Counted from the first letter of the stretch, positions 1,063 through 54,584 are shown. The stretch: DNA of 63,682 nucleotides from Catajapyx aquilonaris (GCA_000934665.2 KZ538533.1:1-63682); one strand, 5' to 3'. Translations and numbers: made by a program. Notes: a model not told the origin generated them from the sequence alone.

Positions 1063-4000
1063 TTAGTCCTTTCTTTCGGGTAGAGGTGGGTTAAAGCCAA
1101 CAGGAGCAAGAGTGGTGTCTGTAGGAATAGGAGGTCGGAGTTCAGGCATAGGATGCACACTAGAAAAGAGAAACAGAATTGGTTGGAAACAAAGGAATAC
1201 AACACAGCATGCAAAAGAGAAATATTTATTATTCAGAGAAAATGGTGTAATACTCACAAATGTTCTTGTCAAGGAATAACTTATAACAGTGCAAGTCAGC
1301 TCACAATTTTAAACGTAGGGTAAACTGAATTTGCACAATCACATACTATACATAATGCACATGCTACAGGTAGATGTTATAGAAAAATAACTATCAACAA
1401 AGGCATGTAGGGACATTACCATGTGTCTTTTCGGGTCCTTTCCTGAACATACTTGATGATATTTTGAACCGCCTCGATGCTTGTAGCAGTCCCATGCAAA
1501 TCTGAAAAATTGAGGAAAAGTTCGGCTTCAGAAGAATTAGCCTAGGATCTTCCGATAAAATATTTCAGAGACTTCAAAACTCTGCAACATCCCAGCAGAT
1601 TGTCAGACTTCATGATTGTTATACAAAGGTTCCATGCAAGTGTCAAATTCTTCAATCAGTGGTTTACACTGGGAACTTCATACATAAATCAACAATGTAA
1701 TGTTGTGGGCATTTTGCTATTATTAAATTCATGTTTGAATATCAACGAGACTAACCACAAACACTACATAATTTTTGTTAAGCTGCTGCAATATATTGCA
1801 ATGGTCCTGACCTGGCGTGTGGATCTTGTCCTCATTCACGGTCTTGTAGATTGCATCTCTAAGCATATCAGCATGTGGTGTGAGCTCAAGGTGGTCTAGC
1901 AGGTCAACAGAGGCATTGAGCATGGCAATTGGATTTGCAATGTTCTTCCCAGCTATGGCAGTGCCTGTGTTTCGTGTACCAGGCTCAAAGATGGCATACT
2001 TAGGACCATAGTTGCGCAGGGAAAGCAGTCCAGCACCACCCACCAGCCCACAGAGGAGGTTCGTCACAATGGTGCCATACAGATTGGTCACAATCATCAT
2101 ATCAAACTGATCTGGGCGTGAAACCAACTGCATGCATGTGTTGTCAATGATCATGTCATTCGACTCTATTTCTGGGTATTCTTTTGCGACTTTGTGGCAC
2201 ACATCTAACAAAAGGCCATCAGACACCTTCCTGTAGGGTGGGAAAAAAGATGAAAAATTACCTCTGCACATGTAATGCTAAGGTAATGTTCCTTACATGA
2301 TGTTGGCTTTATGCACAATGGTGACCTTCTTGCGACCCAGCTTCCTGGCCAGTCCAAATCCATACTTGGCAACACGTTCGATGTTTTGGCGTGTGACTAC
2401 TTTCAGGCACTCCACCACACCTTGCACATTCTAGCAAAAGAAATTATAGCCATGGCATCAAATCAGATACCTACAGAGTCACAAACACATCTGGTTTAGC
2501 CAAAGGGACTGACCTCATGTTCCATCATGGCGTACTCTCCTTCAGTGTTCTGCCTCACAACAATGACATCCACATTATTGTGACGCATGGGGATTCCAGG
2601 AAAGCTCTTGCAATTGATCACACTCACATACAAGTCCAATTCATTTCGAATGGCCACATTACGAGAAATAACATCGGCATTCATGCTACGTGTCTCAATG
2701 TTACCTGTGTTGAAAAGAAAAAGCACTAACTGTGAGTCTATGATCTTTGTCACTCTTTAAAAAATAGTAGGCTTGAAGTAACAACCACAGCTCTACCTTT
2801 GATGGCCAAACCATTACGGTGGATAGATGTCAGGGCATAGTTGAGGTCATCATCAGTCTCGCTGTCGGGGTCTACATTCACTTCCTCAAAGTCCACTGGG
2901 ACTCCTGCATATCTGAACACCTCCTTCACAAAATACATGTTTTCTGGGCCGATCCCACCTCCAGGAATCATGGTCACAGTGTGACGCCCACCATACTTGG
3001 CCACGGGCATAGACTGCCACATGTGGAAACAAATATTGGACACATGTTAATTTCTGCACATCAGTTTCCATTACTTGGCAGTCTGCCAGCTATACACAAG
3101 CTTACACTCACTACTCACATACTATGCACACACCATGCAACACCTTCCACACACCATATTTGCATTAGCAAAAGTACAGGACATAAAGCAGTGTATATCA
3201 GGCAATGCGAATAACTTAGGCTCTCAAATAAGTAGGTTAAAAGGATGGATCCTGTTGGGATTTACTTTTCTCTCTGCCTCGATGACTCTTAGTGGACATT
3301 ATTACATTGGAAAAACATGCTCATTTGCTTATTTATTTCACACCCAGGTTTAGGGCCGGTTTCACCAAGAGTGGTATATGATAAAACCGCAGTTCTTTTG
3401 GAAAATCCCTACATATTTGTATGAATTTTCTGAAAGAACCAAGGTTTTATCACATACCGCTCTTGGTGAAACAGGCCCTTAGTGAACAATATTTGGCATC
3501 ATGTACAGTTTACAGTAAATTAAAATTCTTAAAGGTTCATCCTGAGGTTCATACTTTCTGCACAGCAATACTTCTTCTTCATTACTATTTCTCAAGCTAC
3601 TGGTTGCCCAAAATGAGTTCACATCAAGGTAAATGGTGAGCCAGTCTATTACACACCGCAACTAGAGGAATATGCATAAAAGTGTGCAACATGCAGTTGC
3701 ACAAACATGCACACCTACCTGATACAAGTGGCAGAGCAGTAGTATAGACACGACAAGTTATGGGATTCTGGGGAGGGGAAAAGAGCTGGGTTATGTTACA
3801 TCAAGCTTATTACATTAGGTTAGGACGGCGCAGTAAGAATATGGTCACTGTTGTAATCATCTCATGTAATAGAGGAGAACATGCATTTCCTTAAACTGTG
3901 CAAGACATTACATGGCATGGGAAGAGAAACAGTCTAGAAAATAAAGCTGTGATAGAAGAACGGGGGAAAAGCAAGGTAACATGCAATTGTTGCAGAGTAA

Positions 4001-5830: not shown

Positions 5831-8800
5831 ATGGCGGCTCCCATCCCGAAGTGGAAGCGGGTGACAAATACGAGCGGAACCCAGCCAAGACCCAGGCATG
5901 GACACCGGGCTGTGGCCATCAAGGACCTCATGGTCGTCTTCGGCGGCGGGAACGAAGGGATTGTGGACGAGCTGCACGTGTACAACACAGGCAAGTCTTC
6001 CTTCGACCCCCTACTCCCCCGGCAAGATCGCCTCTATAGGGCCCAACATGGCGTCCTCAGAGAGGGTCGCGCTTATAACCGCGCCCCCGCTCGGACCGCC
6101 ACTTTCAGCTGTCCCGGGTGTCAACACCAGTACTGGCGGGGAAACTTCATCGCTGCAAGGGATATGTCACGACGGGCGAATTTATATTTGCGACTGTATT
6201 TTGGCGGGCCCCTCCTTGGCTGGGTCCAAGATGGCCGCCCCCTACTGGGGCTCATGACGCTTCAGTTCCGGTCTTTTTAGGACAGGGTTGTTGTGCGGGA
6301 AAAATTGGCGGTAAAGGGTGTCCCAAATAGAGCGGGGATCCGGATGGGGCTGATGTTTGGGGCAATGTCGGAGGGTTGACAGCGGCTCAATGGGGGTGGA
6401 CGGATCGGAAATTTCAGCTAGTATGTCGGACCCGGTCGGACCGTTTGATGAGGAGGTTGGGCATACGAGATGTCAGGTGCGGTTTATTAGGGCCAGTTGG
6501 TGAGAAAGGCGGCGGATTATTTCGCGCGGGAAGCAGCGTTACATGAGAGGTAAACCGCGCCCCAGGCGGCTACGGACGAAGCCGGTACGACCTTGGAGGC
6601 TTCAACGGGCACATCGCCTGCACTCTGTTCGCTTTAGACCCACCTGACGCCGTATTGCCCGATACGGTACATCCGGGAACGGACGGCGGACAGCGCCGCC
6701 GTGGGGTCCCCCTTCCGATATGTGCAGTACAGAGAATGCGAAATATGCGGATCATGCGCGGGCTGGCGGAACAGAGCTGCGGGGGAGGGGAGGACACGGC
6801 AACAATGGAAAGGGTGTCTTGAGAGGGTCCAATATGGCTGCCGGTAATGGCGGACAACGCCCAGTCATGTATGGGGGTGGGTTGAGGCCGGAGTTGTGGC
6901 CGGGTCCGGTTTGGCCTCCTCGATTGTTGTAATGTGTGGATGCCCTTTTTTGATGGGTGTGTTCGGTTTTGGCAGGGTTGTCGCCTGGTTGTAGGGGGCA
7001 GGGCAGGCGGAGGCGGGATTTGCGGTGGGGGCTGGAGCTGTGACATACCATGTCCTGTTGACATACTGCTTTATGACGTGGGATGAGCGCCAGTTATTTT
7101 ATGGCCATGAGCAATGTCACTGACTTTTCCACAGATTAGCATGCTTCAGGTCAAACCATGGTCGTGCAGGTTTGCATGGCTTCCTGTGAGGTCACCAGGA
7201 GATCCATCAGTCAAGGGCCATGGGGCAATGTGGGGAACATGGAAAAAGACACCAGACAATGGTGACTGGAATTATGCAATGACAAACAGATGCTGCAGTT
7301 GGACTCTTGTTCAAAAACTCCACGCTACTGTGCCATCATGAGCCTTTGTAGAATTGCCCTGCATGACGTCCTACTCCAGCATCACTCACCAAGTCGAATA
7401 ATAAAGTTTTCCCGACCTATCCTTTCCGAGTTCATTAGTTTTGACAGGGCGACGCGGTGGCGTAGCGGTTAGCGCCAAAGCCTGCCCCAAAGCCTTCCAC
7501 CTCAGGTCCCGAGTTCAATCTCCGGGTTGGACAGAGGATACTTGTGTGGATAGTTTCGATGGGTTCTCTCCGTGTTCATGTGGGTTTTCTCGGGGTTCTC
7601 CCATTTCCTCCCGCAATCAAAATCCATCACAGCGCAGGCAATGATTAAAGTCAGTCAATTAAAAGATTGGGCCTATCATGGGGTATCCATCATTATCATC
7701 ATTATTAATTAGTTTTGATGTAGCTTCAACTTCCTCTCCTAAGGGCACAAGTGTACGTTGGCTGCACTTCAGATAAGGCAAGCGTGCCTTGCCCAGATTC
7801 AGAGAATTGCCTCGTCTGACTTGCCTATTACCACTGAAGACAGAAATAGTAGGGCAAACGTCATGAAACACAGTTTTGCCCATGCTCAACTACAATGAGG
7901 TTGTACAGCAAATCACTGTGATTTGGAGGTACAACATGATTTGTGGATTTAGATGAAATATGTTGAAAAGGCAATCGTACTTTTTCAGGAGAACAAACAT
8001 CTGGTACACATTTACTGTGGAATGACTAATGTCTTAAAATGAAGCGTGAATTGAAATTTTTGGAATAGCGCCAAATTCTTATGAAGGCAGTTTCTCTTCC
8101 TTGATTGTTGGCAGTGTATTTTCATTTTTTGAAAAAGAACACAAACATGACTGCAATATTAGTTTACACTGGTTTTGCTTTATGGTCTAGGAAACACCAC
8201 TCACTTTGACATGAACAAATCAGTTATCCTCATATACTAAGCATTTATAAAATGTAGTCACCTCAAGTGAAACTAAATTGCACAAGTCCTGTTGTATGCA
8301 GAAGTTCAACGATGGATTTCGCAAGGAAATTGGGAGTGGAAGGATGGGGAGAATTTCTTCATCACTGTCCTGCTATGGTGCATGGCCAAATTCATTGTTG
8401 CCTCCAACAATGCCATCAGATGAGCTGTTTAACCAGTACCAAGCCAGGTGCCAAGTTCCTACACTCAACAGTTTTTTGAAAAAGTAGATATCTCATGGTT
8501 GCTACCTAAGAATGAGATGTTACAATTACAATTATAGCATTACTTATGCATACAGCTATGCCCTTCATGGTCGAGGCAGAGTTTTTTTTTTTTTGGGGGG
8601 GGGGGGGAATCATCCATGAGGAACAACAATAAATTTCAAACTTTCCATTGCTTTAAAATGGGGGTCTTTTAAATTTCATGTGGTTATCACTTAATTATCC
8701 TTGGGATTTATTGTGATATAGTTAGGGTGCTTGAATCAGGCTTTCTGACAATATGTTGCATCAATTTTGATAAGCAAATAGAGGTGACTACATTTTCGAA

Positions 8801-11800
8801 ATGGATGCTAGAAATACAAGGTACAGTTGCTATTTTTCAAGTGTGCGTCGAAGTTCAGTTGGAAACAGTGCTTTCAACAAGTATCTTCATTGATATGGTC
8901 ACTTACACTCTTTTTCTTACATCTTGCAGCGAACAACCAATGGTTCATTCCACCAGTGAAAGGAGACATACCACCAGGATGTGCTGCTTATGGATTTGTT
9001 GTGGACGGGACGCGGATCCTGGTCTTTGGGGGCATGGTGGAATATGGAAAATACTCCAACGAATTATTTGAATTGCAGGTAAGTGTAGAGGCAGTGATGT
9101 TGAAATGAAGCTACACTGTCTGTATGTAATTCACAGCCATTGGTTTCTCAACAGGCAAGCAGGTGGGAATGGAAGCGTTTGAAGCCACGCCTCCCCCGCA
9201 ATGGGATCCCTCCTTGCCCAAGATTGGGCCACAGCTTCACTCTGATTGGAAACAAGGTGTATTTATTTGGAGGACTGGCAAACGACTCCGACGATCCAAA
9301 GAACAACATCCCTCGCTATCTGAATGATCTTTACACCTTGGAATTGCGTCCCAATTCATCAGTAGCATGGGAGCTCCCTGTTACATATGGGCAGCCACCA
9401 TCCCCAAGGGAATCACATACTGGGGTTGCATATGCAGAGAAGGATGGGTCAAAGGCCAAGCTGCTAATTTATGGCGGAATGTCTGGATGCCGACTGGGTG
9501 ACCTGTGGATGCTTGATGTTGGTGCGTATAGAGTTGCTATTTTTCTGACCTCTGCAGTGAAATGTTAAAGAAGTGAGTTGACTTTTTTCTCCTCCGGAAA
9601 GGTTAAAAATGGTCCTCGTGGATTAGCAATCTTTTACAATGTGTGTTGACACTTTTTGTCTGATTTTACCCAGTCGTGTCCATAGAGATGTTTTGACTTT
9701 GCAGTGCTGCTTGCATGAAATGTCCATTTCTCTGGTGATTTAGAATCTATGACATGGAGCAAGCCATTGGTGCATGGAACAGCACCTCTCCCACGCTCCC
9801 TGCACAGTGCAACCCTCATCGGCCACCGCATGTACGTATTTGGTGGGTGGGTCCCACTGGTGATGGATGACATGAAGGTTGCCACCCATGAGAAGGAATG
9901 GAAGTGCACCAACACCTTGGCATGCCTGAATGTTGGTAAGTATTATGACTTTTGCTTTGGGAAGCTAAGGTTATATCTGGTATTGTTCATTTGCTCAGAA
10001 ACTATGACATGGGAGCCTCTCAATATGGAGATGTTTGAAGAGGCAACACCTAGAGCAAGGGCTGGGCATTGTTCAGTGGCAATTCACACCAGATTGTATG
10101 TCTGGTCTGGCCGGGATGGCTACCGAAAAGCATGGAATAATCAAGTAAGTTTTTTTGTTGTGGAGTCTGTGAGATGGTTAAATCACACTAGTAACTGATT
10201 TCAACTATCAAGGTGTGCTGCAAGGACCTGTGGTACCTGGAGACAGACAAGCCACCAGCCCCTGGTCGTGTTCAACTGGTCCGTGCCTCCACCCATTCCC
10301 TGGAGGTGTGTTGGGGGGCCCTTCCAACATCTGATGCCTATATCCTGCAGGTGCAAAAGTATGACATGCCTCCAACTGCCAACCTCTCTGCACTCCCTGG
10401 TGCTTCCCCAACACCAGTTCCACCCCCATCCACCCCAACTGCAGCTCCTGTGACTCCCACCCCTGCTTTGATAACTCCAGCTCCTGCTGCATCTCCTCTT
10501 GCCGCTCCACCCACACCAACCCTGATCCAATCACCAGTGGTGGCTTCTCCAGTGTCCACACCAGTTGTAGTCACCGGGGCCTTGCCTTCACCTGTGGTGG
10601 CCTCACCAACTGTTGCAACCACGGCCACTCCCATCACCATCAAAAGTCCAACTGGACATGCTGTTATTCGACCTGTAACACCTGCTTCCTCCCCAGCTAT
10701 GGTCACTCTCGCTACAGGGGCACAACTAAAAGGTGATTCATTGTTCCATGTGCTAATTACATTGTACATAGTTATGAGTGTAACATTAAATACCTCATGT
10801 TTTCAACAGCAACCCCAAATATTGTGCGTGTCCGGGCTCCTCTGGGCATGGCTGCTGGGCAGACAATTCGTGTGGTAGGTCCTGGGGGCACCCCTGCTCA
10901 GATCATCAAGAGCCCTATGAGTGTTAATGTGTCGGGTGGGCAAGTGGTTACTGCTGGAGGTGCTACCCAGCAAGGGATGTCGGGAATCCAGGCTCTGGCT
11001 GCTGCAGCTGCAGCAACACAAAAGATCACCACCAAGGCAGCAACTGTTACATCCACCACTGTGTCCTCTGCTGCAGTGGGAATGCCTGGGGTGAGGGTCC
11101 TGCAGCCTGCCATCGTAACCCAACAAGGAGTGAAGGTTACTCCTGGGACACAAACTGTGCGTCTAGCTTCTCCTGGTGCAACTGTTCTCAAGGCAGGCAC
11201 AGCACTGGGAGCTGTGGGCCAGCAGACGAAGCAGATTATACTGCAGAAGCCAATAGGGGGTGTTGGTGGAGGAAGTGGGCAGCCACAGATTGTGACCCTT
11301 GTCAAGACCAGTCAGGGCATGACTGTTGCTACCGTGAGTTCACTTGACTTGCATCTGAGTCTGTCATTTTTTGATATTTGAAAATTAATGGTACTTATAC
11401 ATTTTATGCATTCTTCAGATGCCTAAAGTGAGCCTGATCCCAGGCAAGGCTGGTGTTCCTGGAACAACCCAGATGGCCACCATTCAGAGCCCTGGTGGGA
11501 AGACGACAACCATCCCTCAGGGTGCCACAATTGTCAAGCTGGTCAACACTGCTGGGGGTAAGGGAGCAGACTAATTTTTGTGTTGGGAGGGCAAAATCTA
11601 GCATTAAATGTTGCAATATTTGCCTGAAAAAAATGACAATAGGCAAACCAGGCACGGCGATCCTGACCACCCAGGCAGGCATGTCGCAGCCAACCATCTT
11701 TGGAATATCCAGCATGGCCCAGAGTATTCAAGGTTGCTGTTATTATATCCCACCATACTAGCTTTGCATGACTATATGTTAGGCTCAAACCATGAAAATG

Positions 11801-14800
11801 GCCATTGGGCGAAAAAAACCGACCAGACGTATGTCTGGCCGCCTTCAACACAGCCAGAACTAGGTGTGGTCATATCCAAACAGACACAGCTAGTTCTGCT
11901 CGTTCCTGCTTATTATTATACCTATGGATATGGAGGTGATAGGGCGATGGATGGAGCCCTTTGTGTTGGTGTGGCTGTGGAGCTTGGGGGTGACTGAACC
12001 AGGACTGTTCTTTGTTGTGGCCCTGCCGCGCACGGTCTGTCGCATTGCCCGATAATCTTGGTTAGTTGCGAGCTGAGCACTTATTGTGTGTTGTGCATCT
12101 GCCCAACAATACTTGTCTTGTACGGTCACCGGCCAACAAATGTTATTGGGGCTTTGCCAAGCACATTCCAGTAATTTGCGATTGGCCAAGCCACAATAAC
12201 GTTCGTTGGCCTGCGGCGCACAAAGACGGACAATATTGTCGGGTGGATACACAGCCCACAATAAATGCTCAGCTAGCTACGTTCGCAATGAACTAAAAAT
12301 CATCGGGCAATGCGACAGACCAAGCCTGGCAGGGCCACAGCAAAGGACAGTCCTGGTGCTGTCACCCCAAAGCCACACCAACACAAATCCATCTCCCAAT
12401 CACCTCCTTATCCATAGGTATATGAATGAGCAGGAGTGATCAGAACTAGCTGTGGCTGTTTTGGTCTTTTTTTCAGGCCTATTGGCATTTTCGGGGTTTG
12501 AGCCTAACATATACACACTTACAGGATCCTCTCTTTTTTACATGAGGATTCTGTTTCTTCCAGAAGATAAGCTCTTATTGTATTCACACCTTTCTTTTGT
12601 CAGGTGGTGCAGCGAAGGTGCTGTCCACAATGAAGACACTCCCGTCCAACATGGTGACAGTGACCAAAGCTCATCCAACTCTTACAACTCAGACCATTGG
12701 TGGGAAGCAGACTATCGTGATTACCAAGCCTGGAGGGGGTGGATCAATACGTCCCCAAACACAACAGATAATCGTTGTGACTACTGCATCTGGGCTCAGA
12801 ACAGTGCAGACGCTCTCAAGCTCTCAGGCAGCTCTGGGTAGGTTGACAGCTGGAGCAGTTGGTGGTGGCTTTGTAATATCTTAACCACTACTCATTCTAA
12901 ACAAAATCCATATATATGCTTACCCAGAAAGTGATGGGTTCATGATGATAATGAGGAGGATTTGTGTGGGCTTTAATTAAATGAATTTTTGGCAAAATCT
13001 AGGGAAATGTGACGTATTTTATTGGGCACTTGATCATTGAGGAAATTTTTCTGGATTGCTTCTGCCTATATTAGGGTCATTCCCACGTGCCACAGGGATC
13101 ATGATCCTTACCCCCGAAAAACGCGATTGGAGTGTTCCCACATGCCCTTCCTCCACTCGAACGTGTTTACGAAGGTGACTGTGGCAGCCAGCTTGAGGAA
13201 GTTGGCTGCCACTTTCCGAGTCGCGATCCTGACGTCACTCCCCCTCCGGACCGGGTCTTAGCCGAGCAACATGGCGGCTCTCTTCTTGGCCCCATCTGCC
13301 CCCACGCTCTGCGGGCAGCCAGGACCTGTGTAATAACGTAGATAGCATTCCTCCATGCTATTACTGCCAGGCCTCTCGTAGAGTCACCCGTGCCTTTGTC
13401 CGGGAGCCGAAGCGAGAGTCATTTTTTCGCCAGGCGGGAGGACGTGCTTCCAGACCCATCTACCGATAATCACGAAAAGTACGTGGCTTGTGGGAACAGT
13501 CACCAAGATTTTGCCCATCAGAATCGTGGTTGGAGATCGAGATTTTGTGACACGTGGGAATGACCCTGTTGAAGTTGACAATTGAATCAGAATTGGTAAT
13601 CTTTCTACAGGAACTTCAACCTCCACCATGAATGTCCTACCCATGGTCACTGGTGGCCAGGTGACAACTGCTGGCGGGATGAAGATGATTGTTGTGTCTT
13701 CAGGTGCTATGGGAGGAGTCAGTGCCCTGCAGGGCACAGCCAGCACATCCGGCCTAGGCTCTGGTGCCACCACAGTCACTTCTATTCCCAAACCCATCAC
13801 CATTACTGTGCCTGGACAGCAAGGCGCACCCCCCAAGACAGTCACCATTGCCCACAAGTCCGCTGCTGGAATTGCAGGAGGCACTACCCTTTTGAACACA
13901 GGAGGACAGATTCTGGCTGTGCCAGCACAGGGAATTCTGTCTGGAACTGGCCAACAACAGCTTACTATTGGAGGGAAGCCAGTCACAGTCCAGGTGGGAG
14001 GATTTCTCTTGTCATTTGAAAATCGGGTTCTCCACAAGCTAGACCAAAAATATGGATGAACGTGTCTGTAACGAAATGTTGTTATCTGTTCCAGGTGACA
14101 ACTGCAGCTGGTGGCCAGAAGACTGTGGCTTTGGTGTCATCGAGCCAAGCAATGACAAGTGGCACTCAGGCGAAGGTGCTAACTGTGGCTGGTAAGAACC
14201 AGCAGGCAGGTGCTGCTAAGGTTATGGTAGTGTCTCAAGGACAATCACAACAGCCACAGCCAACTGCATCCTCCATTGGGTCGCTGGATGGACCTGCAAC
14301 CACAGATGCAGCCCTTGCCGCCTTGGCTGCTGAGGCAGGCCTGATTGACCCCCCTGTAGATGAGCTGGGCCAGCTGGCTGCAGCCACTGGTGCAGCAACT
14401 GTGAGGCTGGCTGTAAGTGGAGATGGAGATGAAGAGGCAACGATGGGGGAAGGAGAGGCTTCATTTATAGCCTCTGGAGGAGTGCTGGGAGAGGAAGATC
14501 TGGAAGGTGTGATGCAGGCTGCTGTTGGAGAGGAGAGGATGGCTGTTGATGATGCAGCACCTGGAGAGCAGCCAGCAGAAGAACCCATGGAACAAGATGA
14601 AGGGAACCCTGGTAACCCAGGAAATCCAGGAAGTCCTAACCCAGGGAATCCGGGAAACCCAGGCAACCCCGGGAGTCCTAATCCGGGAAACCCGGGGAAT
14701 CCACATAATCCGGGGAATCCAGGCAGCCCTAACCCAGGAAACCCTGGAAATCCAGGTAACCCTCATAACCCAGGGAACCCAGGAAGTCCTAACCCAGGGA

Positions 14801-16534
14801 ATCCAGGAAATCCCCATAATCATGGGAATCCTGGCAGTCCTAATCCAGGGAACCCTGGAAATCATAACCCAGGAAACCCCCATAATCCTGGGAATCCAGG
14901 AAGCCCCAATCCTGGAAATCCTGGCAACCATAGAAATCCAGGTAATCCACACAATCCTGGAAACCCTGGAAATCATGGCAATCCACACAACCCTGGTAAC
15001 CCTGGAAATCACGGCAACCCACACAACCCTGGGAACCCTGGGAACCCTGGCAATCCACACAATCCTGGGAACCCAGGTAATCATGGTAACCCTGGAAACC
15101 CTGGAAACCCTGGCAACCCACACAATCCTGGAAATCCTGGCAATCATGGGAACCCAGGCAACCCACATAATCCTGGAAATCCACATAATCCAGGAAACCC
15201 ACACAATCCTGGAAATCCTGGCAATCCACATAATCCAGGAAACCCAGGTAGTCCAGGAAATCCTGGCAATCCTGGAAACCCAGGCAACCCTGGAAGCCCC
15301 AAGGATGAGGTCAAAGATGAGGCTGAAGAGTTGAAAGAGCCAAAGGAGGAGCTGAAGACAGACGTTAAGAAGGAGGAAGACTCTCAGGAGGAAGGAACCA
15401 GGCACGGTGACACAAAGGATAAGACCAAGGATGAACTTGATGCAGATAAGCCAGCAACCAGTGAGGCGCACCTTCTGGATCCATTGTCCACCTTGGCATC
15501 AGCAGCCATCAGCTCAGCCAACAGTATGGCCAAGGATGACACAACCATGGCTATTGCAGCCAATGCCACAACCACTACTCCAGCTACTACAGCTGCCAAT
15601 GGACTGAAGGTTGACGACGATTCAAAAACAGTAGCTAGACGTGATAGTGCGTGGTATGATGTGGGTGTTATCAAGGGGACATCATGTATCGTTCAAGCAT
15701 ACTACCTGCCACAGGTTAGTTGTAACTGTAAGGGCGATTATTATCAAAGACTGTTGATATTTCGGGTGTAATATTAAATGTTACCTTCTGCAGGAGGGTG
15801 TTGAAAGTAAGGAGATTGACTGCGAGGCAGACTTGGACCCTAGCTTGATGGTGCGTATGGAGCTGAAGCCAGGCACAGCGTACAAGTTCAGAGTAGCAGG
15901 CATCAACTCAAGTGGACGTGGCCCATGGTCAGAAGTTTCTGCCTTCAAGACCTGCCTTCCAGGCTTCCCAGGGGCTCCATCAGCTATCAAGATATCCAAG
16001 CTGGCAGATGGGGCCCACCTGTCATGGGAGCCACCCCAGAGCACTACAGGGGATATCATAGAGTACTCTGTGTACCTGGCTGTCAGGAGTGCCACCACTC
16101 AATCCGCTGGTGACACCAAGACAGTGGCCAGTACCCCATCACAACTGGCCTTTGTCCGGGTCTATTGTGGACCTGCCAACTCCTGCACTGTGGGCAACGC
16201 GTCACTGTCAGCTGCTCATATCGACACCACCACCAAGCCTGCCATTATATTCCGGATTGCAGCACGGAATGAGAAGGGGTATGGGCCTGCTACGCAAGTC
16301 CGGTGGCTGCAAGGTATGGCCTGATTCCCGTATTAAGGTATATCTTCGTGAGCAATTTTAATTGGTAACCAATTTGTGCACCTAACTGTTGAGTTAACTG
16401 ATATGGTTCCTTCTTCAGAATCTGCCTCTCCTTCCTTTGGAGCAAAGGGTGCACCTGTGAAGAGGCCAGCTGTTGACCTGAAGGCACCATTTACAGTGAC
16501 CAGCAAGAAAGTCAAATCAGACGAGTCCTCATGA
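5831..16534 (+). CDS. HCFC1: Host cell factor 1 (Kelch beta-propeller, split Fn3, basic region, GNP repeat, acidic region, C-terminal Fn3, NLS)
   Basis: 14 exons: 5831-5990 (GC donor), 8930-9078, 9155-9521, 9744-9935, 9999-10144, 10213-10732, 10810-11333, 11419-11557, 11643-11732, 12604-12837, 13611-13993, 14095-15714, 15794-16313, 16419-16534. Hallmark peptides: [122 protein letters not shown], and basic [11 protein letters not shown]...KKVK. Confidence 0.96.
7447..7670 (+). mobile_element. tRNA-derived SINE with a V-domain-like core, in HCF intron 1
   Basis: A box TGGCGTAGCGG (~7458) and B box GAGTTCAATCT (~7511), followed by TGTGTGGATAGTTTCGATGGGTTCTCTCCGTGTTCATGTGGGTTTTCTCGGGGTTCTCCCATTTCCTCCCGCAATCAAAA, which resembles the conserved V-SINE central domain as recalled. 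The 3' boundary is approximate. Confidence 0.7.
11773..12513. mobile_element. Foldback/MITE-like element, ~740-bp imperfect palindrome, in HCF intron 9
   Basis: Ends TATATGTTAGGCTCAAAC / GTTTGAGCCTAACATATA. Complementarity continues inward (e.g. CAGCTAGTTCTG/CAGAACTAGCTG, TACCTATGGATA/TATCCATAGGTA, GGTCTGTCGCATTGCCCGAT/ATCGGGCAATGCGACAGACC) to a centre near 12170. Confidence 0.85.
13073..13567. mobile_element. Non-autonomous DNA transposon, ~495 bp, in HCF intron 10
   Basis: TIRs AGGGTCATTCCCACGTG(C)CACA / TGTG(A)CACGTGGGAATGACCCT. The CpG-rich interior differs from the flanking intron. No clear TSD. Confidence 0.7.
14602..15300 (+). repeat. Coding tripeptide repeat (GNP)n with GSPNP, HNP and GNH variants, 233 aa, inside HCF exon 12
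   Basis: Direct translation within the 14056-15771 ORF. 9-bp periodicity with varied synonymous third positions. Confidence 0.95.
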
Positions 16535-17649
16535 GGTCAAGCAGGAACTGGCAATGCTTTTCAGTTTGCATAGCCGTGATACGGATCTATGATTCTATGA
16601 TCTTTTTTTTTTTTTCCATTGGTTGTGGGGAGGAAAAAGGTGGGTTTATTCACATCCATTTATCAATCTTTACCTCTTCTATTCCTTTTTTTTTTTTGTA
16701 TGTTGTAATCATTCCCCATCACCTGTACATTGGATTTACAACAGTTAATCTTAAATGAAAGTTGAAAACCCAACCCCCTCACCATACATACATTTATGTT
16801 TGCATCTTTATTTTAAATACCTCCCCTCCCTTTTAAGCATATTGAACTGCAATGTACAAATATTCGTTGGTTACAGCCAGCGAAGGTAGTGTTCCCCTCC
16901 CACTAATCCCCCCCTCCCCTTCCTTTTATGGAGTTAAAAGGAGATGACATTGGTTCAACCGAACAATGAATTTTTGAGTAGAAGTTCAGCACTTTCTTTT
17001 TGTGAATGTCAAGGTAAAATTGTTTCGAGAGGGTTACTAACATTTTAAAATCTAGATTTTTTCCGCGTCATACCAATTAGGTCCTGAGATTTGTATTGAG
17101 AGCAGTTAGAACAATTGGCCAAGTGATAAGTACCTGGATTTCATTGTCCCTGATTTTGTGGTGCATTTTGCGTGTGTAACTGCTTTCGTACAGTTTTACC
17201 CCCCCTCCTGTACAGGTGTTTTTTGAAAGCAGCAATTTAGTGTGTAACATTGGGGAAGGGGGGGTAGAAGGGTGCTGATAATACAGCAATCTCTCACCTG
17301 TTTGCAGTTTTTTCTGACCCTCTCCCTCTAGTAGTAAGGTTAATATATCATGTTTCTTAGATTGGGGACATGTCCATCTCAATTTGCTTATGGTATGTCA
17401 CGGTCAGGTCATCTGCTCTGTTGGGGGGGAATGTGATCCAAAATTATTTTAGTGAATTTGCCCCCTGAGCATGTAACTTCATTCTTCTCATTATCACAAG
17501 TGCTACATGACCAGCTTGTAAAGAGAGCCGATAACATTGCCCTTCTTGGCTCCTCCTGAGGAATGTACAGGGTAGTCATTACGGAACATTTGCACTTGCA
17601 CCTTCCTTTCCAATTAGGGCCAGTTAAAGGGGAAGTGATTGGTTGGTGC

Positions 17650-25903: not shown

Positions 25904-28900
25904 TTAGGAGCAACCGCACTCCCTGACGATGACGTTCTTCCATTGCGTCACCTTCATCTTGGTGGGCTCATTGTTGTCTGCGTACAGGATGTCCAGGTTA
26001 CCCAACTTTGTTGGAGCACAGCATGGCCTGGGTACCTTCTTCCTATCACGCATATGAAGCATCCCTTGCAGAAGGGCATGGTCATGAGCTGGGAGGAACC
26101 TGGACGGACACCGTCCTCGACAGAAGAATGCATCGAATTCGGAGGGTTGAAGGATGAACCCGAATCCTTCTAGGTCCTTCAGCACCACCTTCATCGACCT
26201 GAGATGAAGGAATCCATTGTTAGTCGCGGTGTGAAGAAACCTGAAGGATGCACAATGGAACTCATTGACCTCTGAGGACGTCACAACGTACCCCAGAATG
26301 ACCTACCTGCGACAGCATCGTCGGTTTCCTTTCCCGCCTTGTCGTCCACAGTCGGTTCTGCCAGGAGGTGGTTCCCTGTCGGACGACGTAGGCCATGCTG
26401 ACCGTCGTACCCGTCCGGATCCACTAGGGGCCAACCGCTGCTCCTTGACCATCACATTCAACACTGGCGCATTGTCACCCTCACTGTCCACACTCACTCT
26501 CACTTCGTCCGGAGTCTCCACCACTAGAGACATCCGTCGGTTACGTCGACGAGACCGTAGCCACTGTTCTAACGCGCGGCTGACGTCGACGTGTACCCAC
26601 TCTCCCGACGGCCACGTGGACGCGTCACGGGCGTCCAGGAGCAACAACCGGGAATAGTCATCGTCCTCCGCGTCCTCACCACCGTCCGCACTGGACACCT
26701 CTAGTCTCTGGTACACGCGCACTGTGGCGTCCGACGACGCTGATGTGTCCTCGTCCGACTGATGACGGTGCAGGCGGAGGGTGGCGTACCCTGGACGGAA
26801 CCGGACATGAGGAGAATCCATCTCGCCCATATCTATGGAAAAGTTGAGCCGCCATATTTGGGAGTCCAAACCGCCTGCTGTCGACCGTCGTTGTCGTCGG
26901 CCTGTCGTCTCTGAACCTAAACAAAGACAGAACATGGTTTATTTGTCTAGAACACATATGTTCACTATTACCCAGGTCGGCCCGACGTCGGCAAATGACA
27001 CCGGGCCAATGTTGGGGAGCGATGTCGGGCCAATGTAAAACAGTTAACTTTTTGTCACATCGGGCCGACGTTGGCATCCGATGTTGGGCCGATGTTGGCA
27101 TACAGTGCTGACCCGATCTATATAATATGTGTGGCACATACACTTATTTTTGTGCAATTATGCGATAGACAAGATATTGACCCCCAGATGTATATATCAT
27201 AATTACGTCATTTCTGAGTTTACTCTACCTTGACTTGGGTTCAAAATTTGCGTCCAGGATATAGCTCATAAATTATATTTTTATTTGCAAAAAAAAAAGA
27301 GTTACGCATGCCATTCCCATGAATCTTCGTCCCTGACGCAAAGGTCGTGGATACGTGTTGCTAATTGTCATTTGGCCGCTTGTTTTTTTTTTACCGGATC
27401 TTACCATTTTTTTTTTACAAGCCCTATGATTTGGGAAACTTTTTCGAGGATCACAAAAAAACTAAAGGTATATCTAACCGTTCTCAGATCGTAATACTAG
27501 AGTAGTTAAAAAGAACAGCAGAGCGTGTTACGGTAATTTATTCCCGGAAACCCTTGGCTCTGAAAGTCCTTTAACTTATCGCCCTCATTCCTTATACAAT
27601 CGTTGTCTTACGTTGAAGATGGTGGGGGGAAAACCCAGAAGATCTAGATTGCAAAAGGGGAAAATACCCTTTAGTGGAATTTCGCAGCTGAACTGTAACT
27701 CACATTATGACGGCAGTAATTACCGTTACAATTTCGACAATGCGATTATTACAAGTAAATGTGCTTGTAAACAATTGTGCCAATGTAGGTGGTTTCCCTA
27801 CAAGTTCTTGCAATATATATTTGTTTTACCCCGTGATAGGCCTACATAGGCCATGTTGGGGGGTGGTATACCACCATCAATTTTCTTGTATTTTTCTTTC
27901 CTCCAGTGCAGTGCAAGGACAGGATACACTCTTAACCATTTACCTTCTCTAGAGAGGGTAAANNNNNNNNNNNNNNNNNNNNNNNNNNNNNNNNNNNNNN
28001 NNNNNNNNNNNNNNNNNNNNNNNNNNNNNNNNNNNNNNNNNNNNNNNNNNNNNNNNNNNNNNNNNNNNNNNNNNNNNNNNNNNNNNNNNNNNNNNNNNNN
28101 NNGGGGGGGGGGGGGGGCACTGGTGGAGGTGCAATGTCTCAAGTTGGGGGTCATGTGTAGTCCCTCATCTCCCTAGATGCGGGTCAGAAACCCCCCACAG
28201 ACACCGCACCTCCTCATGGACGAGACAATACGGTCCGTACTACGGTTCCTGATAAGATCCGGTTATAAGAGACATATACAAAAAATAATGTGATTCTCCT
28301 AATTATCTCCCTGCTACCTTCCCCACCCCTTGCAAACAGTTTGTTAATACAAGTCTATGAAGTCTTGGCCTTGTAAGGTGAGCTGAAAGCTGAAGGTAAA
28401 TAAATAAACCAACGGTGCGGAAAGAACTTTTCGCCCCCATCTTGCCAACCAAATTAGCAGCTACGTCACACATTCAGGTTTCCAACACCACACAAACAAG
28501 CAGGGGAGGTTGGGCAATAACTGCAGACACCCCAAAGTGTTTACGGGGTAGGAAGTATGTGACCTCTTCCTTTTTTCTTTAAAGGCCACGTGCCCGAAAT
28601 GGCTGGCTGTGGGCCAATCAGATAGAGGACCAATCAGGAAAATGTACCTGAGGACATGCGCGTCGGATCCGGATACCACGTGGTCCAAAATGGCGGATGA
28701 TTTCGTAAAAATTGACCGGAGAGGTCAGGGTCATTTATAGCATACCGGATCCACAGTCTCAATCGTATATTAATCGTTACTTAAGAGGGTTGACCTCTCG
28801 GATAATTGGTTAATTGGTACGATAGAGGTTCACTCTTGTTAACCTCTGTCATAACAGTTGCAAATGGGTGACTGGGACGTGTAACAGCTAGTATCTATAA

Positions 28901-41891: not shown

Positions 41892-44800
41892 ATGACAGCT
41901 GGGCCGGAGGGAAGGAGGATGGTGGCCCAACTGTGCTGCTGGGCCGTCGTCGTCTTGTTGGCCACTCACGCTGGTAAGTGCTTGCCTTGCAACCATCGTT
42001 CAACAAAACATGGCAGTGTGGTGTGCCTGCCAACCCCATGCACGACATGATACATCCCCAGTGCCATAAGGGAACACCTGCCGTTCACCCTTTGCCAGCC
42101 ATGCACATCAAAAGGCTGCCTTGGGATTACCTGCAGGTGTATGGGGCAGATCCGTAATTAAGACACTTCATTTCAATTTCAAGGCCAACTGGCCTAATTC
42201 CATAGAACAATGCAGGATGTTGCAGTTTAGTTAATTTCATACTGGCAATAACCTGCTGCGGAGCAGTTTCTTGTAAGAGGAGCTGCACAGATACCGCCTC
42301 TTATGCGTCGTTGTTGACCAGCCAGTAATAGCCGAGACAATTTTTAAAAAAATGATGCCCCTAGGCATGCAACTCTATGTGATTGCCACCCAGTTGCCAC
42401 CTCAGGGTATTGGGACTGAGTCTTCCCTTATCCTGTCAGTGTCACCTTACAGCTTACTCCACGCCACAAAAGACCCCCAGAGGAGTCCTTCTCCATTCCC
42501 TCCCTCCCTAGCCCTGCTCATTCCCCCCTTTCCCTCCTCCTAATTAATACAACACTTCAATCCAACCACATGTGAATATGCATCTCTCACATTAATATTC
42601 CTGCGAGTACCATGTTTTGGTTGACCTACTGTACCTCTCTCCTGTCAATCATATTGGAGACAAACGTTGCCTATGTTGTAGGATAATATGCCCTGTGGGT
42701 TGCAGGTCATACCTAGGTGTCATTTTGCAATCACAAGTGCCTGTTGTTCAGTTGTTATATTGGTCTTATAACCATGGAATCATGCATCACCTGACTGCCC
42801 TTTTTAAAGAGAAGGTAGTGCTGCTTGTCATTTGCATAACCGAAAAATTGCATCTGGATAATGACTGATTGGGCGATTTTCTATGATGCTCTTCTGCCCC
42901 AATTACAGTACTCTCAATCAGAGTGATTTATTTATTTCCATTCATATGGAGGTTGAATTTATGGTTCACAGATCATGGGTCTATTGGCATGAATTTAAAG
43001 ATTATCAGATTGAACGTCACAGTGATGGCATCATTTATTATTGTGTATTTTTGTTATGTCTTTAATGTGGGTTAGTAATATAAATGCTGAATTCATCAGT
43101 TGCGGGAGGTTATGTCAACTAGGCAGAACATAAGTAGACTGTGACCTTTAACATGTGTTGAAAGTGGAAGGAAGTAAGAGTGTGCCATTTAAGTCTTGGG
43201 CATCCGAGAATGGCTTATCAGTGTGAACTAGATGTTGGACTATTTATGCCTATCAAAACCACAGGAGTGGGGTTGATAAGCCTATGATGTGAGCACAATT
43301 GGATGTCATCATCTTCACCGGAACAGTCCCTTTTCCACTGACCGTTTCGGTTAGCAAAGAACCATCCATGATGAGGTTGAAGTATTTTTAGTTATTTACA
43401 ATGTCATATATTGATGGAATACTTGAGAGGGATACACTGTCAATCAAGAAGTCATTGACTTGTATAGGGTAGGTTTTTGTCAATAGAAGAAAATATTTTT
43501 GGCATGCTGCGTGGTTTTGTGCCTTTGTCAAGGCAGTTTTGGCTTCTTTTCAAGGACTGGACGATGTTCAGCATAATCGTGTTTTTTGTCACATTTTTTG
43601 TCGTGTTTGATATAAGCGGCAGCTGCTGGATGACTCCCGTGCATTTTACCAGGACATGCCACATTTGCACAAGAATTGTGGCAAGATTTAATTTGTTTGT
43701 AGAGTTGCAGGCATGATAAATGGAATAAACTTGGTATCACTTTTGTGTGTGTGTGGCAGTATGTGAGGTATTAAAAAGGCCAGCGGCAATTTCCTGTTCA
43801 CCTTGAACAGTATCCCAGAATCACATTGTGCAACAAGAGCATGGGAAATTGCAGAATTTATTTGGAAGCTATTTTATACAAATCTGATATAATGAGAGAT
43901 TGCCCCTTTCAAACCGCTCCATAAAGCTGGACCATTACTTGTGTGGTAGGTGAATAAAGGCAAATATGCAGATGTGTAGACAAAGCATAGTTTTCTTGGC
44001 CATCACTCATACAGGGTGAGGCTTCATGACATGCCTACATTTGCTGCCGTCAATTTAAATGAATGCTCCTTGTAAATGTGTGTAGGGCTGCATTCCTACA
44101 TACTCAGAGAGTAACAAACTAAGGCGTCATCACACCAAATAATGGCCACTGAAAGTGTAGAAAATAGTAATACATGTGCAGGGTACAGCACCATTATTTG
44201 ACATGGAAAGGTAAAGCAACTGCAATCCTGAAATAAGTTATATTTTCGATATATCTGAATTTTGAATTTTGTCTCCAGTGTTATAACAATAATTGGTGAA
44301 ACTTACTTACAAAAGTAGAAATGGCAATGTCATATTTGCAGAGCTTTACAAAGATTTAAAAACACTGCTAAGAATCTGGTTTCCTTACAATTAGGCATTT
44401 TGGTTTCTTATATTTTTCTCCTCCTTTGAACATACAGTGGTATTTTGGAAAAGGGACATCAAATTAAGAGCAGTACTACCTGCTCAGTATGATTATGTGC
44501 TCTGTTCAGCCTGTGAGAGTGACTAATTCATGATCAATACTGACATTTCAGGTGGGGTGGATATCACAACTGTGCAGGTCTTGGGTCCTTCTTCGGAGGT
44601 GGGTGAATGTGCAGACGTGACCTTAGCTTGCCAGGCGACTCCATGCAATGCTACGTTGTGGTGGAGCCTGCGTGGGGTCAACCTGACCGGGAGCTTTACC
44701 TCCCCCTGTCCAGCAGAGGAAGTGGAAAACGGGGTGTCGTCCTTCTCTGCTGTTCAGGAAGGATTAGTGGGAGATGGTCCTGACTGGCAGGGGGTGGAAT

Positions 44801-47800
44801 CCACTCTGCTGCTCAACTGCACTCATGTGACACAGGCTGGGAATTACACCTGTCATGCTGCCGACCCCGATGGGGAAGATGTTCAAGAGAGGGCTGTGGA
44901 GCTGTGGGTCAAAGGTAGGATCAATTATAAATGTTAGCTGAAACTTGCTGGGCTTTGCAGACTTGGGCAAGGCAGGAGCCGGCAAAACTGAGTTACTGTC
45001 TGTTGGCTTCTGCTGTTGTAGTGCGTAAATTGGCCAATAAAATTACGGTGAATTACTGTATAAATACAAATCAAATGTGCAAAAAGTTGTACCAAATCAA
45101 TTTCAATTTATTAACTGCATCAATGCAGGGAGGGACCACACTCACTTTACATTTGAGAAACAACAATTATACAGAGAAGGCTCTGGCCTCAACCAATCAG
45201 GCAAATTGCCCCTGCCCTCTTCACATTCTTTTAGAGCCTTGTCTTACCTTACATTGTTTTAGGGGTGGGGACTAGACATACTTGAGAAAAAAGAGGAAGG
45301 AAATCTCCATTAGAGCAGGGGTTTGCACACTCCTGTGTTTGATCCTTATAGAACGAAGGAAGTAGGAAGTGCATAGATACAGTTTTACAAATTAGCATGC
45401 CATTTGGCCACATACACCAGGTAATAGAACAGTGTTTTAATGTGCCTAATGTGCTCTTTTGGCCGAGTATCAAACAATAAGATAAAGCCATTTCTAGGGA
45501 CTTGGGGAAAATTTTTGAGATAGGAATTTCTTCCACCTGAGAACATTGGACATTCGTATATGATATGGTAGTTGTGGACATTAATTCCGTCATACTCCTA
45601 GCGACATTTTCCATTGTAGGAGACGTGCAAATCAAAGTGATAGAGTGCAAGCCATGCGAGTAAGAAATGCTAGCCCTTCAGTGATGTCACTGGCTGGGTA
45701 CGTACAAGCCTTTTCTCCATTGTCCCTCAGCCGGTGATGTCACTCAAGGCCTACCTCCTCTTACTTGCACAGATCACACTCTACCACTTCGATTACCACG
45801 TCTGCCGCATCTGAAAATTTCGCTAGCAGTATGATGGAATTAATGTCCAGCACTGTACCAGTCTTCGGGTAAGTTTAAATTACATAGAGAGCAGCTTTCA
45901 GATGGATCTATCTGTACATGGCGCTTATTACCCAGAGGGATCCAATTAGCATTAGTTCTAATACTGACCAGCATCCTACTTAATGTATAGTCCATTTGTT
46001 CTACCATGTAGAAGGCTGGGAAGTATCTGTGGTTATCATAGAGGGGCTGTTTATCCAGATTGTTTTTTGATTGTTTTAAGCAATATTATAGTCATTTATA
46101 ACTTCGTTATCCATCATTACTTGCGCTAGCGTACAGAAAGTTGTACCATGTAAGCAATCAGATAAAATAATATTTTAAGATGTATCATTTTATGTCCCAG
46201 GAGTATAATTTATTGTCTCATTTGAAATGTTCACTGTATGTATAGATTTTTTAAAACTCCAGTCAACTCCTTTGCACTAGAATCTTATGCACTATGCAAG
46301 TGCATTGCAATGGAAAGAGTGTAATTTGCAAAAGAAATTAAATTTCCCACTGTTGTAAGTGTTACAGTAAGGCAGTTTCCTACGAATATTTATTGCTCCA
46401 CAGCATTTGGGGTAAATAATGGGCCTTCATCCTTGTGTTAAACATTCAAGGGTTGGTATTGATTTAGCAGGGAATTTTGGAGCTGTGGATGCTTTTTATC
46501 TTGCACATTCCCCTGAAGTCGTCATTGAACTTGCCTAAGAACTTTTAGGCCTTGAATTTGAGAAACTTGGGAAGGGGGCCTGCTGGCTGCCCAAAACTTT
46601 TTATGTAGTGGTCGCCATGAGCACGAGGAGTGCTTCAGCACAGACAAATCTTGATGAAAAGCAGCACAAAGCAACTTTGGAAAAGAAGCAATCTTATCTG
46701 AAACGCATTTAAATTATTTACACCAGCATGTGTGATGCTAATGGAGTTATGGTATTTTACAGGGTGTGAAAGCTATATTTTTAACTTCTTATTTATTTCT
46801 TTAGCAGGGCAGAAGGGGAGTTTTTGAGCCCTTGGGTGGTGAAGCCAGATGGGAAGGGAGAAACCTGGGCTTGCACAAACACTTAAGGCATATTGGACAT
46901 AAGCTAGAAGTTTATCTTTTGGTTTATTTATGCCTTATGCACTGACTCCTTATTAAACAGATATCTACATGCTGTGGGTTGCAGTTACACTTGTGTACTC
47001 TCACAGCTAGTATGACAGCCAAGCTTAGATAATTGTGTGTGGTGCACTTGTGGTTTTAATTGGTAATCTCCCGTTAAATGCAATGTGATAGGGCAAGCCA
47101 GTGACACGCATTCTTCTCCTGTAGTTCCTCTGGAAGTGATACAGCGAAACAGTTCTCATGGGAAGGTGGGGTCAAAGGCCCACCTTTCTTGCACATTTCG
47201 AGGGCATCCCCTGTCCCAGCTGGAGTGGAGGAGACTCGGCCATCCTCTCCAGCTCAAGAAGGATAAGTGAGTATTTTACACACACTTCTTGTTCGTTTTT
47301 TCTCCCTTCCCTCCCTCAGATGTCTTCACATCTGGCCCCTGTCATAAGAAACAAGCACTCATTCATTTTTTGTTGCACTTTTTTCCCTTCTTGTGGTTGG
47401 CGAAGTCTGGGGAAAGAATATCTAGCTATGTTCTCACTCTCTAGGTACAAAGTAACTGTGACCAATCTGTCTGAGGTGGAATCCATCCTGATGCTCAAGG
47501 TCGAAAATCTCAACAGGAAGGACAATGGCAGCTACCAGTGCCTTGCCAAGAATGCACGGGACAAAACCATGGCACTTGTGGACTTAATAGTGCTTGGTAT
47601 GACCAGTTTCTTGCACATGGATTCAGTAGAAATAAATGAGTCATGCAAAGGTCATTCGAATGATCACATGTGCACTACTTATGCCTAATGAGGACTTGTA
47701 GTTGTTTTGTGCACAGTGTTTTTTTGTTTGGACTTTTTTTTCTGCAGGCATTCTGTCAGCGTTTGGGGACTGTAGAATACTCTTCACCTTTCAGACAAGC

Positions 47801-53800: not shown

Positions 53801-54584
53801 GAATCTCCACACTTGTCATGCTGTCTGATGTAAGTCTTTGAAAGGTTGCTTTTCTGTTCTGAAACCATCTGAAGTGATTTTCTGCTTTCCACTAAGGGAC
53901 AGTTGTGTTTGTGTCAACAAGTGCTTTTGTATGTGCATGAATTTCAAGTGTTCCTTTTCCTCCTATTAGTTGGGTGAGGGCGAGGGCAAGTGCCCACGTT
54001 ATTGGCCCGAACCAGATGCGGAAGCTACGTATGAGCACATCCGTGTCCGATACCTGCAAAGTGAGAGCTGCCCGTATTACACATGGCGGGAGTTTGCAGT
54101 GAGTAACACCAAGACGGATGATGGGGTGGTGGTGACCCAGTTCCAATACCACGGCTGGCCCATGGGAGACGGAGAGGTTCCTGAGGTGACTCGGGGACTG
54201 GTGGACCTGGTGGATACCACCCAGAAGCATCAGGAGAAGCAGCCCACTTCAGGTCCCATCGCTGTCCACTGCAGCAGTGGGACTGACAGGAGTGCCATCT
54301 TTGTTGCTCTGGCCATCCTGGCACAGATGATTCGCACTGAGGGGAGACTTGACGTGTTCACCATCGCTAGGAAGCTCAGGTCCCAGCGCCAAGGGCTTCT
54401 CAGGAATTTTGTAAGTAAATTGGCAAATGGTGCACACCCTCGCTTGGTTAATTTGTGCAGCGTGATCGTCCTGCCAGCAGAATTAACTAACAAGCATTGT
54501 CTTTTCCAGGCACAATACGAATTCCTGTACCGCGCCGTTGTGACATACGTCGAGCTTCACAACTTATTGGAAGATGACTTGTGA
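41892..54584 (+). CDS. Ptp69D: Receptor-type tyrosine phosphatase 69D-like (signal peptide, 2 Ig, 3 Fn3, membrane-proximal region, TM, D1 and D2 PTP domains)
   Basis: 18 exons: 41892(or 41919)-41973, 44552-44914, 47125-47266, 47445-47596, 47795-47904, 47990-48467, 48613-48734, 48805-48951, 49023-49213, 49304-49441, 50095-50486, 50839-51079 (TM), 51439-51583, 52266-52659, 52735-53294, 53389-53829, 53970-54410, 54510-54584. Motifs: RVSERNGPICCYR, HRDSDYGFQQEFE, KNRYPDIKAYDQTRVKL, WKDFMAPEHP, VHCSAGVGRTG (D1) and VHCSSGTDRS (D2). Confidence 0.95.
45575..45849. mobile_element. MITE family B, longest copy (275 bp), in Ptp69D intron 2
   Basis: TIRs TGGACATTAATTCCGTCATACTCCTAGCGACATTTTC / GAAAATTTCGCTAGCAGTATGATGGAATTAATGTCCA. 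Confidence 0.85.

Follow-up and report, generated by a model that had tools for sequence, protein, structure and literature searches.

The HCF gene of Catajapyx aquilonaris lies on the plus strand of a 63,682-nucleotide stretch of DNA (KZ538533.1:1-63682, here the window), and in the centre of its protein it encodes an array of Gly-Asn-Pro units, at 14602-15300, to which we refer as the GNP tract. HCF is a core cell-cycle and chromatin cofactor, and we consider it probable that the tract serves in it as a transcribed, selectively maintained and intrinsically disordered spacer within the acidic part of the HCF linker. An earlier note, made from the sequence alone, had described 233 residues of Gly, Asn, Pro, His and Ser with one Arg in exon 12 of HCF, and both composition and frame confirm this: the tract (699 nt, 233 codons, HCF residues 1146-1378) contains P73, N72, G59, H20, S8 and R1 and no other residue, which puts Pro at 31% and Gly at 25%. 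Although it makes up only 13.5% of the protein, it holds 72 of the 105 Asn and 20 of the 39 His. Translation also bears out the punctuation that the note had reported, since in the first half GNP runs are each closed by GSPNP, six times, and in the second half GNP runs are punctuated by HNP and GNH, with GNP/GSP at the end. In total there are 45 GNP and 8 GSP motifs, together with 14 H-N and 7 N-H dipeptides. Besides a 9-nt period, Tandem Repeats Finder detects higher-order ones of 36, 42, 51, 60, 63, 66 and 111 nt, at 65-83% matches. The tract falls in a stop-free frame of 583 codons (14020-15771). Since a repeat of this kind cannot make stop codons, other frames are open as a by-product, but the GNP frame alone continues into conserved HCF sequence at either end.

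The gene that carries the tract is a member of the HCF family. Five N-terminal exons match the beta-propeller family Kelch_HCF (PF13854, profile positions 2-337 of 345, E 1.3e-20 to 4.4e-62, Pfam), and an fn3 domain (PF00041, E 1.8e-12, Pfam) lies at 15794-16324; the first 400 residues are 83% identical to Periplaneta HCF, and the C-terminus is 66-72% identical to arthropod HCFs. A maximum-likelihood tree (21 rows, 1118 columns) places the protein among arthropod HCFs, outside the pterygotes (99) and a copepod plus malacostracan clade (96); this tree, with no chelicerate or non-arthropod row, does not resolve its position relative to the HCF of Strigamia. The tract sits in exon 12 (14095-15714; 1620 nt, 540 codons, phase 0 at both ends, residues 977-1516), which is bounded by an AG acceptor at 14095 and a GT donor at 15714. 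The 3' junction, from 15714 to 15794, is confirmed by a spliced contig of the run X5, introduced below, and across the 5' junction the sequence KPVTVQ/VTTAGGQKTV is contiguous in Hetaerina and Petrolisthes HCF. Upstream of the tract, a conserved arthropod HCF motif of DAALAAL type ([20 protein letters not shown], 14287-14346) provides an anchor, after which comes an acidic stretch with 21 D/E against 2 K/R in the 80 residues preceding the tract. On its other side the C-terminal flank (15301-15714) is rich in K, E and D (23 D/E and 12 K/R in 60 residues), and is followed by the conserved LSTLASAA and WYDVGVIKG anchors, then by Fn3c and a basic C-terminal cluster. The tract is, in other words, an uncharged insert with a single charged residue inside the acidic part of the HCF linker. 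In human HCF-1, the acidic region is an activation domain.

The tract is present in mRNA, and is neither an intron nor an assembly artefact, because contigs spliced at two downstream introns contain it. We compared contigs over 13300-16700 from four DNA runs that share one sample, possibly the very one behind the assembly, and from X5, which comes from another sample and study. We take X5 to be RNA-derived on account of one contig from which two GT..AG introns are missing: it reads 15540-15711, 15791-16311 and 16417-16485 in succession, with intron 12 (15715-15793, 79 nt) and intron 13 (16314-16418, 105 nt) spliced out. Two X5 contigs lie within the tract (14619-14797 and 14772-14925), and a third (15147-15564) links its 3' end to unique exon sequence downstream, each with 0 mismatches. 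X5 covers 461 of the 699 nt, over which the two samples are identical, and no joint crosses the tract; at 14926-15146 and everywhere upstream of 14619 there is a coverage gap in which X5 is uninformative. Short-read contigs tend to break at repeats, and DNA contigs do end at 15144 and 15225, which might speak for a misassembly or for an intron removed by splicing. However, overlapping DNA contigs of three runs (X1, X3 and X4; 13538-15144, 15116-15225 and 15197 onward) tile the tract with 0 differences, albeit from the sample that may underlie the assembly, whilst the contigs of the independent sample, spliced elsewhere, include the tract and bridge its 3' end. With a frame that is also intact over 233 codons and continuous with conserved flanks, we regard the chance of an artefact as negligible.

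The array is also old and its residues are under purifying selection, because nearly all differences between its copies fall on the third letter of a codon. When the tract is compared with itself at a lag of 9 nt, 0.21 of first, 0.30 of second and 0.66 of third codon positions mismatch. Of the 159 pairs in which the same residue recurs three codons on, 62 use one and the same codon, where random codon draws would give 65.8, which means that synonymous sites between neighbouring GNP units are fully randomised. The longest exact repeat inside the tract is 31 nt. The higher-order copies of the first half tell the same story: third positions account for 15 of 16 mismatches at lag 111 (synonymous to non-synonymous 14:1), 15 of 15 at lag 60 (15:0), 13 of 13 at lag 42 (13:0) and 10 of 11 at lag 66 (10:1). 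In the second half, the corresponding figures are 43 of 63 at lag 36 (34:14) and 33 of 46 at lag 63 (30:8). Nei-Gojobori estimates (NG86) for the first half put dN at 0-0.02 and dS at 1.4-1.8 or at saturation, and those for the second put dN at 0-0.23 and dS anywhere from 0.4 to saturation. Lag-9 codon positions, substitution counts and NG86 hence agree with the earlier claim that synonymous codons had been shuffled while the peptide was preserved. Its corollary, that neither recent slippage nor an assembly artefact is at work, also stands, given randomised synonymous sites and contigs of two samples that agree, and inclusion in mRNA, implicit in that account, held up when checked against the spliced X5 contigs.

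Constraint of this kind need not imply a function, and the tract could be a coding minisatellite that expanded harmlessly in a disordered linker, with constraint only against stops and hydrophobic or aggregating residues. Such tolerance would fit the lack of a tract in most arthropod HCFs, a linker length that ranges from ~150 to ~570 residues among HCFs, and the absence of predicted structure. Yet a dN of 0-0.02 alongside saturated synonymous sites is tighter than the avoidance of harmful residues needs, and GNP, GNH and GSP units recur at the same site in the HCF of the centipede Strigamia maritima, as described below. We therefore take a tolerated expansion without its own function to be unlikely, whilst granting it a real chance.

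As for structure, AlphaFold2, run on the tract as a single sequence, returned a mean pLDDT of 44.5, a pTM of 0.11 and no secondary structure, an output consistent with disorder, and the top score in the ESM Atlas was 0.79, under the meaningful level. A collagen-like triple helix would be the most obvious ordered alternative, and finds encouragement in database matches: the last 56 residues of the tract score 50.1 bits against Collagen (PF01391, cut-off 27.2, E 2.3e-13, Pfam), and phmmer against the PDB matches collagens and the collagen-like fibril protein 8zxl_X. We read the Pfam score and the PDB matches as compositional; for the latter, the bias is larger than the score of the domain itself (57.2 bits against a bias of 113.9 in one case). 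Like the collagen repeat, the tract has Gly at each third residue over short runs and is high in Pro. Unlike collagen, its register is broken every 3-7 triplets, both by His in Gly positions (HNP) and by GSPNP, whose NP insert shifts the register by two residues, such that the longest unbroken Gly-X-Y run is 7 triplets. In addition, HCF is a nuclear protein with a basic C-terminal cluster, no signal peptide and no trimerisation domain, and the AlphaFold2 monomer is without structure. The collagen-like spacer proposed in the earlier note is consequently disfavoured, and we consider a triple helix extremely unlikely.

The punctuation of the array raises another possibility, namely that the tract could be a regulated module: a His-based pH or metal (Zn/Ni/Cu) sensor, a platform for multi-site P-x-S-P phosphorylation, or a condensate domain. 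The earlier note had already suggested a His-dependent, pH- or metal-sensitive condensate domain. P-x-S/T-P is a MAP-kinase-type consensus, and all eight GSP units lie in PGSP (P-x-S-P) sites, six of which are spaced 14-22 residues apart; the His of the tract stand in regular HNP/GNH units, and the Strigamia tract also has His and Ser units. On the other hand, the Ser codons of the tract are all AGY, one step from the AAY codons of Asn, and GSP may be tolerated mutational noise, whilst the high Pro content argues against strong self-association. Judged from these sequence features, a regulated module seems doubtful.

How widespread, then, is such a tract? No near-identical protein was found in a collection of 5.8 billion proteins, where the nearest HCFs show 50-69% identity in the neighbouring exon. 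Among 107 matches in the protein search, only two HCFs are rich in GNP, those of Strigamia maritima (23) and Hetaerina americana (8), and the remaining HCFs among these matches have at most 2 each. In Strigamia HCF (P0096; 1714 aa, N-terminally incomplete) the tract occupies ~aa 1089-1312, 224 residues of which 65 are G, 59 N, 40 P, 15 H and 15 S. The 3-mer mass that it shares with the Catajapyx tract is 79, whereas 1000 composition-preserving shuffles of the Strigamia residues average 20.5 and never exceed 35. As in Catajapyx, GNP, GNH and GSP units lie between the same anchors, after an acidic stretch and before LSTLASAA and WYDVG, and the tract's position, its distance from the C-terminus and the protein length are all similar. 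At the protein level, at which the two were compared, Strigamia differs in that most of its units are heptads (GNPGNHG), Gly is added and D, E, V or S interrupt the array more often, whereas in Catajapyx a purer tract of 6 residue types is built from triplets and punctuated by GSPNP and HNP.

We extended this to a survey of 101 anchored sequences including Catajapyx, in which both anchors are present (the DAALAAL-type motif and [13 protein letters not shown]), taking as the measure the maximum NP count per 60 residues of linker. In this sample, which is biased in that two of the searches used words from the GNP tract itself, the maximum is 18 in Catajapyx, 11 in Strigamia, 11 in Hetaerina, 7 in Ladona, 4 in Zootermopsis and 2 in Periplaneta, and all other anchored HCFs, including those of Hymenoptera, Coleoptera, decapods, isopods, Schistocerca and Ephemera, have at most 3. 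The odonate HCFs (Hetaerina americana P0002 and Ladona fulva P0108) have xNP-rich stretches at the same linker position as the Catajapyx tract, and those of Blattodea (P0114 and P0115; Zootermopsis and Periplaneta) have weaker xNP traces there; unlike the Catajapyx tract, these stretches are tens of residues long and irregular, with E, D and S mixed in. When metagenome and metatranscriptome contigs were scanned with the Fn3 exon, 80 HCF loci were recovered, and in none of them does a reading frame of either strand exceed 2 NP per 60 residues, although only 13 of the loci are informative. Likewise, a search of 1.84 billion representatives with the N-terminal flank gave 15 matches, and none of the 8 new ones has the tract, whilst exon 12 searched against proteins of similar length gave 55 matches, 52 of them new, and among the 24 of these with an HCF motif 23 have no GNP and one has a single GNP. 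Outside HCF, the GNP-rich matches to exon 12 are bacterial linkers or collagens.

From the sequences surveyed, a tract of this kind appears rare but not unique among arthropod HCFs. The description "lineage-specific" in the earlier note does not survive the Strigamia tract and the short xNP runs of odonates. The note had also said that GNP tracts common in arthropod HCFs would count against its reading, and this applies in part: such tracts exist, but G/N/P linker tracts occur in just 3 of the 100 other anchored HCFs. We propose to group these as the arthropod HCF G/N/P linker tract, defined by GNP/GNH/GSP units between the anchors, which is a grouping of our own and not an established family. 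The tract may go back to early mandibulates and have been lost several times since, it may be shared with myriapods, should its HCF belong with theirs, or it may have been gained convergently. A bolder reading would make it an ancient HCF module that was already present when myriapods and the Catajapyx lineage parted, if not before, with remnants in odonates and in cockroaches and termites and independent loss in Holometabola and Malacostraca; under strong purifying selection, it would have a specific role, perhaps as a His- and phospho-tunable docking or spacing platform in an activation-type acidic region, and would be the counterpart, in one large central exon, of the HCF-1PRO region of vertebrates. 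We think this scenario rather improbable. In open-access papers and bioRxiv we found no description of such a tract in any HCF, that of Strigamia included, and GNPGNP appears there only in unrelated papers.

Returning to the disordered spacer that we favour, we posit that the tract was built up as a 9-bp unit, GGN-AAY-CCN, and larger units of 36-111 bp were amplified in tandem. This would have happened long ago, with synonymous sites randomised since and purifying selection keeping the residues. The high Pro and Gly content would exclude an amyloid or globular structure, and the tract would most likely be an extended stretch, rich in turns and polyproline II (PPII), uncharged and resistant to aggregation, that separates two acidic segments. 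As a spacer or hinge, it would determine how far apart the N-terminal part of HCF and its C-terminal Fn3/NLS (nuclear localisation signal) module lie and how flexibly they are joined; the twenty His could become charged below ~pH 6.5 or coordinate metal, and phosphate could be added at the eight P-x-S-P sites. The tract may represent an expanded, regular form of the G/N/P-rich region seen at about equal length in the centipede HCF and in shorter form in the odonate HCFs. Several points weigh against a maintained spacer. Selection might act just against harmful residues, and not for a spacer role. With 97 of the 100 other anchored HCFs at no more than 4 NP per 60 residues, and the tract absent from 13 of the 13 informative metagenome loci (those with at least 250 residues of open frame upstream of Fn3c), it is missing in most sampled arthropod HCFs and is therefore dispensable for core HCF function. 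The likeness to Strigamia could reflect convergence or close kinship, X5 has a depth of only 2-4 and minor isoforms without the tract are possible, and low AlphaFold2 confidence in a run without an alignment is weak evidence of disorder.

The central position of the tract also brings to mind the proteolytic maturation of HCF proteins. The vertebrate HCF-1PRO units are described as 26 residues long, with a cleavage Glu and a Thr-rich region, and as cut by OGT (PMC4549301); the repeats are given as confined to vertebrates (PMC4549301, PMC4840301) and encoded by one large central exon (PMC4840301). Drosophila HCF is instead reported to be cleaved by Taspase1 (PMC4549301, PMC4840301, PMC3102056), with the consensus Q-[ILV]-D/G-x-D-D, the slash marking the cut (PMC3102056), and no evident maturation site is described in Trichoplax HCF (PMC4840301). 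We found no Q[ILVFM]DG in the 1727-residue Catajapyx HCF model, the nearest being SLDG at aa 1039. QVDG occurs in 3 of the 14 named arthropod HCFs that we checked (Vespa, Bombus and Lepeophtheirus; P0024, P0099 and P0116), and the other 11, including those of Strigamia, Odonata, Blattodea and decapods, have no QxDG; a central maturation site is not a universal feature of the HCF family. The earlier note had named a new processing region among its options, and one could imagine the tract taking over from the Taspase1 site or the HCF-1PRO repeats, given the missing Q[ILVFM]DG and a location in one large central exon, as for HCF-1PRO (PMC4840301). Nonetheless, the tract lacks the Glu and Thr that define the HCF-1PRO cleavage and threonine regions (PMC4549301), and the 11 arthropod HCFs without QxDG do not carry the tract. 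Nothing ties the tract to cleavage, we know of no protease for GNP, and a processing role is very unlikely. On the published definition (PMC4549301), an identity of the tract as an HCF-1PRO repeat is ruled out by the absence of E and T.

The complete HCF model was built from tblastn with three arthropod HCFs, inspection of splice sites and a test for an open spliced frame. Its 14 coding exons, all on the plus strand, span 5831-16534 and give a coding sequence (CDS) of 5184 nt: exons 1-5 at 5831-5990, 8930-9078, 9155-9521, 9744-9935 and 9999-10144; exons 6-10 at 10213-10732, 10810-11333, 11419-11557, 11643-11732 and 12604-12861, with an ambiguity of one Gly codon at the exon 10 donor; and, around exon 12, exon 11 at 13611-13993, exon 13 at 15794-16313 and exon 14 at 16419-16534. 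The first intron (5991-8929) appears to be of the GC-AG type, with the donor GCAAGT after AACACAG, and is read in this way because the spliced frame and homology (YNT/ANNQWF) fit this junction only. In intron 10, contig depth in the DNA runs reaches 500-1600 over 13300-13565, against ~20-30 elsewhere in the examined stretch, with many diverged short contigs and loose ends; this is probably a dispersed repeat or a transposon fragment. Within the GNP tract, a single contig from DNA run X4 passes from 15168 straight on to 15214, leaving out 45 nt (15 codons) in frame, with only 22 letters on one side of the joint. The two 45-nt segments at this joint are 31/45 identical, and the skip may be a length allele or an assembly-graph path through the repeat.

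Codon use in the tract has features of its own. Counts are GGA25/GGG14/GGC13/GGT7 for Gly, AAC34/AAT38 for Asn and CCT32/CCA32/CCC5/CCG4 for Pro. GGT, the rarest Gly codon here (7/59, against 31/152 in the rest of the CDS), contributes to three CAGGTAA donor-like sites at 14753, 14939 and 15074, formed by CCA-GGT-AAY codons, and X5 contigs show no use of them. CpG is strongly depleted, with an observed/expected ratio of 0.13 for the tract and 0.27 for the remaining HCF CDS, compared with 0.55 over the whole window; the scarcity of CCG and CCC codons in the tract is consistent with CpG avoidance, and the depletion of the HCF CDS would fit germline methylation of the gene body. Elsewhere in the window, isocitrate dehydrogenase exons (Iso_dh, E 2.5e-30) lie at 1729-3046 on the minus strand, head-to-head with HCF, and an open reading frame with a TGF-beta propeptide domain (E 2.3e-9) is found at 26303-26938, also on the minus strand, near a run of N at 27963-28102. 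On the plus strand are a receptor-type protein tyrosine phosphatase gene at 44527-54584, with Ig and fn3 exons and two Y_phosphatase domains (E 2.7e-27 to 6.6e-34), and exons of SARAF, a store-operated calcium entry regulator, at 59236-60855 (E 2.4e-55 and 1.8e-11). Rfam gave no match in the window.

Whatever its precise role, the GNP tract adds a second, unrelated repeat array to the centre of HCF, beside the vertebrate HCF-1PRO repeats with their major functional weight. If it has a specific role, the HCF linker would be a recurrent site of new regulatory modules, and the tract a natural and very pure (G-N-P)n polymer for studying selection on the composition of disordered regions; if it is a mere spacer, it would still be a clean example of a coding repeat whose peptide stayed constant while every synonymous site turned over. 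Precedents exist for parts of this picture. Bacterial surface proteins with PGNP-type linkers make up most of the matches outside HCF, and in a Nonomuraea (bacterial) xylanase, short GNPGNP segments are described as flexible linkers with high B-factors (PMC5442702). These linkers share the tripeptide repeat with the tract but belong to unrelated extracellular proteins, are usually shorter and have no His units, and they offer an analogy only. Closer to home, an HCF with a lineage-restricted central repeat was already known from vertebrates, and the Strigamia protein sequence itself is public; the GNP tract is a new form of such a repeat. The HCF-1PRO repeats are, like the GNP tract, lineage-restricted tandem repeats in the centre of HCF that are encoded by one large exon (PMC4840301), yet the two arrays have no sequence similarity.

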